This document shows, one piece after another, positions 59,605 through 60,919 of a DNA stretch of 64,000 nucleotides. The DNA lies in the IMG/VR virus record IMGVR_UViG_3300005805_009577, positions 96,001-160,000 of that record. One strand, given 5' to 3'. Made by a program: the position numbers and the translations under genes. The stretch is from a virus. How positions within the stretch are numbered: the stretch's first letter is position 1; each line of letters opens with the position of its first letter. Under the pieces are notes generated by a model. It was not told the DNA's origin. It was given only the letters and a program-made list of their open reading frames with translations, and did no database searches.

Positions 59605-59657
59605 AGATATTAGTTACAGGAGGGATTTTTTAATCTTTCAAACAAAGGCGGCAATAG

Positions 59658-59861
59658 CAATACAGAAGAAAAGCAACTAGACCAACAAAAGAAGAGTTAA
59701 TGAAGTGGATATGGGAAGAGCCTACAACAAAAATTGCGAAAAAACTTGGTGTATCAGATAAGTCTGTTGAAAAATGGACTAAATATTATGAAATTAAAAA
59801 ACCACCAAGAGGCTATTGGTCTAAACGCAATAAAATGCCCGAAGAGGAGTCGAACCTCTAA
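59658..59861 (+). pseudogene. C-terminal HTH fragment of an HNH-type homing endonuclease
   Basis: RPTKEELMKWIWEEPTTKIAKKLGVSDKSVEKWTKYYEIKKPPRGYWSK; no nuclease domain upstream (stop at 59655). Confidence 0.65.
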
Positions 59862-60124
59862 CCTAGGGAACCACATACCACTATAACTTTCGTTACCCTT
59901 TCGGTTTAGTGGTCTGGACTTTACCTTCACCTTGGCCTTTCGGCTTTAGGCACCTCCCGTCAAGTCTCTACACCTTCCTATTGCTAGGCTTGGCTCGGTA
60001 TTGGGTCACTTCTTGCAAAGTAGGCCGTTCACCGAATTTGAGAGGTTCTACTTCCAAAATTTCTTTTGGAGCATTCTGTTTTTTTAGGTCAAATCCCTTG
60101 CTCTACCAGTTAAGCTATCGGGCA
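59835..60124 (-). tRNA. tRNA-Gln(TTG), intron-containing (exons 60091-60124 and 59835-59873)
   Basis: TGCCCGA/TCGGGCA acceptor (U1-A72); spliced loop AGGGA-TT-TTG-GT-TCCCT; AGAGG-TTCGACT-CCTCT. Confidence 0.85.
59874..60090 (-). mobile_element. group I self-splicing intron (IC3-like, 217 nt, no ORF)
   Basis: P AAATTCGGTGAA, Q AATACCGAGC, R AGAGACTTGACGG, S AAGGTAAAGTCC; terminal G; exon AUUU pairs with GAAU giving the U.G splice pair. Confidence 0.88.
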
Positions 60125-60136
60125 ATTTGTATTTCT

Positions 60137-60164
60137 ATTATAGTAAGGAAAAAAAATTTGTCAA
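60137..60164 (-). promoter_or_regulatory. sigma70-like promoter for tRNA-Gln
   Basis: TTGACA-16-TATAAT ending 13 nt before the tRNA 5' end. Confidence 0.7.
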
Positions 60165-60891: not shown

Positions 60892-60919
60892 ATTATATTC
60901 ATTTTAAATTATTTGTCAA
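60892..60919 (-). promoter_or_regulatory. sigma70-like promoter
   Basis: TTGACA-16-TATAAT upstream of 60882. Confidence 0.6.

Follow-up and report, generated by a model that had tools for sequence, protein, structure and literature searches.

A predicted group I intron in the anticodon of a phage tRNA-Gln(UUG) gene and its relatives in other viral tRNA genes

A large uncultured phage carries a tRNA-Gln(UUG) gene with 217 extra nucleotides inside the anticodon, after nucleotide 34. The best explanation as a whole is a group I intron that would splice in tRNA-Gln(UUG) and belongs to a selfish mobile lineage; we put the probability of this reading at about 0.88. The gene lies on the minus strand (60124..59835) of the stretch of DNA analysed, which is 64,000 nucleotides long and is called the window hereafter. 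The window comprises bases 96001–160000 of a 181,145-bp IMG/VR virus record with a completeness of about 78% according to CheckV and a GC content of 30.5%. No match was found when 19 kb of the window was compared by megablast with deposited phages, and a search of viral contigs with a neighbouring glycosyltransferase as the query revealed no relative of the phage.

The split gene was missed both by ARAGORN in its default mode and by the Rfam tRNA model at gathering thresholds; its detection required the intron mode of ARAGORN and the E-value mode of Rfam. With introns allowed, ARAGORN placed a tRNA-Gln(ttg) at c[59835,60124], interrupted at 34/35 by a 217-nt intron, the same insertion and the same junction that the original prediction had proposed. 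The Infernal search recommended there also agreed: RF00028 matched 60101..59891 over the full model (positions 1–253) with an E-value of 9.2e-9 in an 801-nt scan and of 5e-10 against the whole 181-kb record, where it was the sole match. The score of this match, 40.4 bits, is lower than the curated gathering score of RF00028 (50), and two homologues, L005 and L006, reach 78 bits and 69 bits, respectively. Beside this match, the window contains a U.G pair in P1, a terminal omega G with P10, and a P3–P9 core with the P3/P7 pseudoknot (Table 1). As standard tRNA finders miss the gene, annotation would wrongly give a phage without tRNA-Gln, and the same gap applies to dozens of large uncultured phages and to unannotated tRNA-Leu genes in deposited genomes, e.g., that of Agrobacterium phage Atu_ph07. 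A further interrupted tRNA of this phage, called by ARAGORN in intron mode, is located some 69.5 kb ahead of the window (G000:C1:26411-26546). Its insert in the anticodon loop is 62 nt long, far below the size of a group I intron.

Table 1. Features of the split tRNA-Gln(UUG) locus (window coordinates) and P10 guides of the intron lineage in its tRNA hosts.
Feature	Position	Strand	Remarks
Sigma-70-type promoter (predicted)	60137..60164	-	TTGACA 60164-60159, 16-nt spacer, TATAAT 60142-60137; 12/12 consensus
5′ exon of tRNA-Gln(UUG), nt 1–34	60091..60124	-	Acceptor 5′ strand, D arm, anticodon-stem 5′ strand, U32 U33 U34
Group I intron	59874..60090	-	217 nt, ends in omega G 59874; RF00028, 58/58 pairs, covariation
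Internal guide sequence	60073..60079	-	GAAU 60076-60073 forms P1 with exon A31–U34; ACA 60079-60077 for P10
P2 hairpin	60049..60073	-	RNAalifold and pair counts; 7/7 outer-helix pairs with compensatory changes
P3	60045-60040 with 59958-59953	-	Compensatory changes in 5/6 pairs
P4	60035-60030 with 60000-59995	-	Enclosed by P3; nearly invariant
P5, extended	inside P3	-	Extension common to the window and L220 only
P6/P6a	59994-59972	-	Inside P3
P7	59966-59962 with 59921-59917	-	Pseudoknotted with P3; cells 100% paired; 3/5 pairs compensatory
P8	59952-59928	-	Enclosed by P7; covaries
P9 region	59878..59912	-	Outer helix 59912-59909/59881-59878 and GAAA-capped hairpin 59896-59883
3′ exon of tRNA-Gln(UUG)	59835..59873	-	U35 G36 G37 U38, anticodon-stem 3′ strand, variable loop, T arm, acceptor 3′ strand
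Remnant of free-standing HNH homing-type endonuclease gene	59624..59861	+	Convergent with the tRNA gene, overlaps its last 27 nt
P10 guide, Leu host			3′ exon AAA, guide UUU
P10 guide, Lys host			3′ exon UUA, guide UAA
P10 guide, Arg host			3′ exon CUA, guide UAG
P10 guide, Ile host			3′ exon AUA, guide UAU
P10 guide, Gln host			3′ exon UGG, guide CUG, CCG, UCG, CCA, CUA or ACA (window, ACA)

ORFs overlapping the intron gave no Pfam match, and the intron was thus regarded as ORF-less. Its fold was analysed in an alignment of 32 introns that included 10 nt of flanking exon at either end. RNAalifold yielded the anticodon stem, P2, P3, P4, P5, P6, P8, and P9, and P7 was written in as a pseudoknot before the pairs were counted. 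Consensus pairs were formed in 97.6% of cells across the 32 introns vs. 29–43% in slid controls, and none of 500 shuffles reached the observed pairing values. Both-sided (compensatory) changes occurred in 38 of 58 pairs, with P3, P7, and P8 all covarying, and the intron of the window formed every one of the consensus pairs. The P5 extension in L220 varies from that of the window by compensatory changes, as judged by eye. P/Q and R/S elements noticed in the original prediction correspond to P4 and P7, respectively; by analogy, P7 would be the guanosine-binding helix. The pre-tRNA folded alone gave the tRNA arms together with P2, P3, P4–P6, and P8 (z = −2.9). As judged from sequence comparison, a chance origin of the insertion is excluded by the covariation counts and by 45 homologous loci described below.

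The near-consensus promoter claimed upstream of the gene proved to match the sigma-70 consensus in full, and the end of its −10 element is located 12 nt upstream of the first tRNA base. Loci L267, L278, and L245 have a TTGATT/TATAAT promoter-like pair (found by eye) with the −10 end 10–13 nt before the tRNA. A second 12/12 sigma-70 match is present in the window at 60892-60919 (minus strand), about 750 nt upstream of the tRNA promoter; it precedes a run of small minus-strand ORFs of 65–74 aa without a family match. A terminator call at 59855..59837 was disregarded, as it sits within the T arm and the acceptor stem of the tRNA.

The state of the locus bears on the possibility that the gene is dead, that is, that the intron no longer splices and the tRNA-Gln is a relic kept by chance. 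The decayed HNH neighbour indicates that the locus has seen deletions, and the low RF00028 score would also suit a relic. However, the complete set of consensus pairs is intact, P1, its U.G pair, omega G, and P10 are all in place, and a full-consensus promoter stands in front of the only tRNA-Gln seen in the record. Moreover, the T arm of the near-identical loci L267 and L278 shows compensatory changes. A dead gene is therefore very unlikely, and we infer that the intron splices.

Removal of the intron restores a clean tRNA-Gln, as had been predicted: the insertion lies in the anticodon loop, and the joined exons form the stem AGGGA/UCCCU with a standard 7-nt loop UUUUGGU. Nine uninterrupted tRNA-Gln genes of viruses have exactly this anticodon arm. 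The predicted spliced tRNA is identical to that of L205, and its 5′ exon is the same in L205, L220, L267, and L278. Differences from the tRNAs of L267/L278, L220, and L245 are mainly paired changes in the T arm, which shows selection on the folded tRNA. The discriminator is U, position 37 is G, and CCA is not encoded. The pair U1-A72, typical of bacterial tRNA-Gln, is present in the tRNA of the window and in all of about 26 distinct intron-split relatives. In tRNA-Gln of E. coli, the discriminator is not U and position 37 is A; hence, charging with glutamine is suggested here by the anticodon and U1-A72 only. G36-G37, the context recognised by the m1G37 methylase TrmD, was observed in every split tRNA-Gln found and in the nine uninterrupted homologues, with a search pattern that also allowed A37.

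The spliced tRNA would read CAA. In long ORFs, CAA occurs 742 times vs. 162 for CAG and thus makes up 82% of glutamine codons. No other tRNA-Gln was found among the 14 plain tRNAs of the 181-kb record (nine of them with U at the wobble position); given the estimated completeness of about 78%, the missing part could hold a second tRNA-Gln without an insertion.

The closest relatives of the intron were found in tRNA-Leu(UAA) genes of phages. Its 3′ half is 84% identical to the sequence of a 735-kb uncultured phage (LR756501), in which tRNA-Leu(UAA) is split at 34/35; the likeness of the insertion position to the Leu(UAA) site, pointed out from the outset, is thus borne out by the nearest relatives. 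Motif scans of IMG/VR revealed well over a hundred loci with the intron core, many in tRNA genes and some in protein genes. Among the tRNA hosts in viral contigs, Leu(UAA) predominated, and smaller numbers of Lys(UUU), Arg(UCU), Ile(UAU), and Gln(UUG) were also present. The insertion follows U33-U34 in every resolved tRNA locus (L007 was left out). ARAGORN calls of Phe(gaa), Tyr(ata), SeC(tca), Val(aac), and a stop-tRNA among the relatives were rejected as false, the intron having been misplaced; in the corrected calls, the intron had to follow a U, to end in G, and to leave a paired anticodon stem.

A pattern of the Gln 3′ junction gave 13 more Gln cases in viral contigs, and 31 of 33 matches to it in JGI metagenome contigs were Gln cases. 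Together with the window and L245, which was found via its HNH protein, tRNA-Gln(UUG) genes split at 34/35 amount to 46 loci, not all of them independent, since some JGI contigs are apparently the same records as IMG/VR contigs. They contain 31 distinct introns of 194–225 nt and the mature tRNA-Gln sequences mentioned above. In 185,579 bacterial and archaeal species genomes, no Gln-type case was detected with this pattern, which is specific to this intron subfamily and would let a divergent bacterial Gln intron escape; two matches, both without a tRNA, were due to chance. No Gln-type case was found in deposited phages with the pre-tRNAs of the window and of three other Gln-type loci as queries.

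Several observations were made on individual relatives. Three contigs carry more than one tRNA split by this lineage: Leu, Arg, and Gln tRNAs in a 251-kb contig (L046, L124, L225), Lys and Gln tRNAs in a 188-kb contig (L024, L205), and Leu and Gln tRNAs in a 230-kb contig (L033, L171). The cultured jumbo phage Atu_ph07 carries a 278-nt member of this lineage at 34/35 of a tRNA-Leu(UAA) gene (L004:553-913, corresponding to about 112,900–113,250 of MF403008.1), in a region without any annotated feature. The putative split tRNA-Leu(UAA) genes of L012, L019, L020, L023, L027, L034, and L050 have the anticodon UAA, but their variable region is short, whereas a long variable arm is the norm for tRNA-Leu in bacteria. 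A match to the 3′ end of the L225 intron occurs at positions 84861-84920 of OR578706.1, annotated as tRNA-Arg of Microcoleus phage My-WqHQDG; this gene of a cultured cyanophage may likewise be a tRNA split by an intron. The capsid gene contains an intron with this type of core in Pelagibacter phage HTVC120P and in a deep-sea Autographiviridae contig (L003:519-701 and L005:519-699). Both capsid genes are annotated as two CDSs with the group I intron between them, and this split annotation is probably an artefact of the intron.

The intron is probably a selfish passenger of a lineage that in these searches was found only in viral and metagenome contigs. Alternatively, the intron could benefit the phage by gating or timing the supply of tRNA-Gln or by hiding the DNA or RNA of the anticodon loop from a host nuclease until splicing. 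The lineage indeed occurs only in tRNAs with U34 that read A-ending codons, heavily used by the phage, and it persists in copies without any endonuclease, e.g., L278. Yet the restriction to U33-U34 follows from the requirement for U at −1 and for few guide changes, and intron-free genes are present among the close homologues of this tRNA. In addition, identical tRNAs with introns of different lineages and endonuclease genes beside many copies are marks of a mobile parasite. A benefit to the phage thus seems improbable, and a selfish passenger remains the preferred reading.

The junction is best documented by the guide sequences. P1 in the window consists of four pairs out of four with U34.G60076 as the wobble pair at the splice site, so that both the P1 U.G pair and the terminal G of the original prediction were recovered. 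For P10, the guide ACA extended by AA is opposite the 3′ exon UGGUU (U-A, G-C, a G-A mismatch, U-A, U-A), scoring 2/3 plus two further pairs. Between the window and sister introns in Leu(UAA), Lys(UUU), Arg(UCU), and Ile(UAU) tRNAs, the guides differ exactly where the exons differ (Table 1 for P10). On the 5′ side, exon ACUU is accompanied by guide GAGU, and exon AUUU by GAAU (window) or GGAU (L205, L220). All 31 distinct Gln-type introns have the U.G pair, 3–4 of four P1 pairs and 2–3 of three P10 pairs in the same register. That the guide follows the exons is the strongest evidence for the predicted junction.

All junctions displaced by up to 7 nt were also considered if U preceded the intron and G ended it; among these, a recognisable tRNA was obtained at shift 0 alone. 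Another junction giving another anticodon (e.g., GUG if both sites shift by one base) can hardly be correct: the Rfam alignment does put the conserved P1 U one base earlier, at U33, but this register has three P1 mismatches, leads to a 6-nt loop or to an intron not ending in G, lacks the combination specific to shift 0, and is used by none of the Gln-type introns. The natural guide/exon pairs represent a ready-made series for studies on ribozyme retargeting.

With the junction after U34, the following course of events can be proposed. The host RNA polymerase would begin transcription from the consensus promoter that precedes the tRNA by a few bases. In the transcript, the exons would pair as the acceptor, D, and T arms and a 5-bp anticodon stem, while the intron would fold into P2–P9. 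GAAU with A31–U34 would form P1, and free guanosine bound in P7 would attack after U34. The segment upstream of GAAU would then hold the 3′ exon in P10, G 59874 would replace the cofactor, and the exons would be joined. The product would be a 73-nt tRNA with the loop U-U-U-U-G-G-U, to which CCA would be added afterwards. The lineage would have moved among U33-U34 tRNA genes by changing about seven guide nucleotides, so that its guide sequence would keep a record of each change of the host gene.

A single origin of the Gln-type introns was rejected by a tree test on the intron core (p-AU 0.0002). In the tree, the intron of the window pairs with that of L220, and the intron of L205, which interrupts the same tRNA as in the window, clusters with one intron each from Gln, Arg, and Ile tRNAs. 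The alignment comprises 188 columns, and recombination among introns could give the same result. Repeated moves between tRNA genes or recombination among introns are therefore suggested only tentatively, because the alignment is short.

A further element of the locus is the HNH endonuclease gene, of which the window contains a remnant and no intact copy beside the intron-bearing gene. A 53-aa ORF (59700-59861) keeps only the C-terminal helix-turn-helix, and the segment 59624-59673 matches codons about 32–49. The ORF matched the last 37 profile positions of the HNH endonuclease family phrog_15471 (E 3e-6) and is 86% identical to residues 184–226 of the 231-aa protein P0003, which has, besides a helix-turn-helix, a weak Pfam HNH match at residues 108–151 (20.7 bits, below the cut-off of 21.4). 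P0003 is encoded intact in L245, a 58-kb metagenome contig, where its stop codon abuts a split tRNA-Gln with a 220-nt intron about 85% identical to the locus of the window. Compared to L245, about 367 bp is deleted in the window, including the stretch with the weak HNH match.

HNH homologues detected by tblastn are convergent with and abut the 3′ end of the tRNA in 7 of 13 Gln loci, the remnant of the window counted. Near-full-length matches abut the tRNA in L171, L187, L197, and L225, the match in L206 is cut by the end of the locus, only a trace of the gene is present in L220, and none in L278. HNH homologues also abut the tRNA in several Leu and Ile loci. A strict restriction of HNH genes to intron-bearing alleles was not clean: in four of nine intron-less homologues, a weak HNH-like match (E 0.002) lies on the same strand, some 200 nt downstream. 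A convergent abutting HNH gene was found in none of these nine homologues. The arrangement suggests that the nuclease and the intron have spread together and that the nuclease then decays; in this phage, the intron would probably have moved together with the adjoining HNH gene, which was later destroyed by the deletion. The neighbouring HNH proteins are candidate nucleases recognising tRNA genes.

The intron and the convergent HNH gene may further constitute a mobile cassette for U33-U34 tRNA genes, seen here only in viral and metagenome contigs. The nuclease would open intron-less tRNA genes of co-infecting phages, the ORF-less intron would ride along and make the insertion harmless, and hops between Leu, Lys, Arg, Ile, and Gln genes would need about seven guide nucleotides. 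We offer this as a tentative model with the odds somewhat against it. If it is true, tRNA genes would be a main homing arena in large phages, contrary to the textbook picture of protein genes.

All phage introns known by 2014 were in protein genes, despite the many tRNA genes of phages (Hausner et al., 2014, PMC3984707). Devoto et al. (2019, PMC6784885) stated that introns in phage tRNAs had not been reported before, and their own cases were not group I. Our search of the literature on group I introns together with tRNA-Gln or phage tRNA found no description of such a case. The earlier supposition that a phage tRNA-Gln intron is undescribed fits the literature consulted, but the intron is not unique, given the 45 further loci. 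The present data extend the host range of tRNA group I introns to tRNA-Gln(UUG), and phage tRNA genes, treated as intron-free in the 2014 review, hold a diversified intron lineage. Among bacteria, four classical and 21 reported sites of tRNA introns are given by Williams (2020); the seed file has no Gln entry, and a bacterial Gln site may already be included in its 21 site types.

Other group I introns of phages, those of T4 td and nrdB and of the SPO1 and Bastille DNA polymerase genes, differ from the intron described here in interrupting mRNAs, as do the capsid-gene introns of HTVC120P and its deep-sea relative, which have core motifs in common with this lineage. In collaborative homing, a free-standing endonuclease is located beside an ORF-less intron, as in cyanophage S-PM2 with its psbA intron and F-CphI. 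Relatives of the window resemble this system in having an ORF-less intron with a separate HNH gene abutting the interrupted gene. In contrast to S-PM2, the HNH gene of the window has lost the segment described above.

The introns of Azoarcus tRNA-Ile(CAU), Agrobacterium tRNA-Arg(CCU), and cyanobacterial tRNA-fMet (IC3) are compact self-splicing elements of the anticodon loop, the kind to which the present intron is predicted to belong. They differ from the present intron in their location on bacterial chromosomes and in the sites, designated Ile2.5Ug, Arg.5Ug, and fMet.2Ug vs. Leu.3Ug here by Williams (2020). Homology of the window's intron was demonstrated with introns that occupy this position in Leu, Lys, Arg, and Ile tRNAs of phages. 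The intron of cyanobacterial tRNA-Leu(UAA) is similar to that of the window in being small and ORF-less, in its position between U34 and 35, in its terminal G, in the P1 U.G pair contributed by the anticodon stem-loop, and in exons paired as the anticodon stem. Such pairing of the exons is needed by the Anabaena tRNA-Leu intron (Zaug, 1993, cited in PMC3984707). The direct sequence comparison covered phage tRNA-Leu introns (LR756501, Atu_ph07, and IMG/VR contigs). The intron of the window is distinguished from its cyanobacterial counterpart by a tRNA-Gln(UUG) host, by its presence in a phage, and by the guide GAAU + ACA instead of GAGU + UUU.
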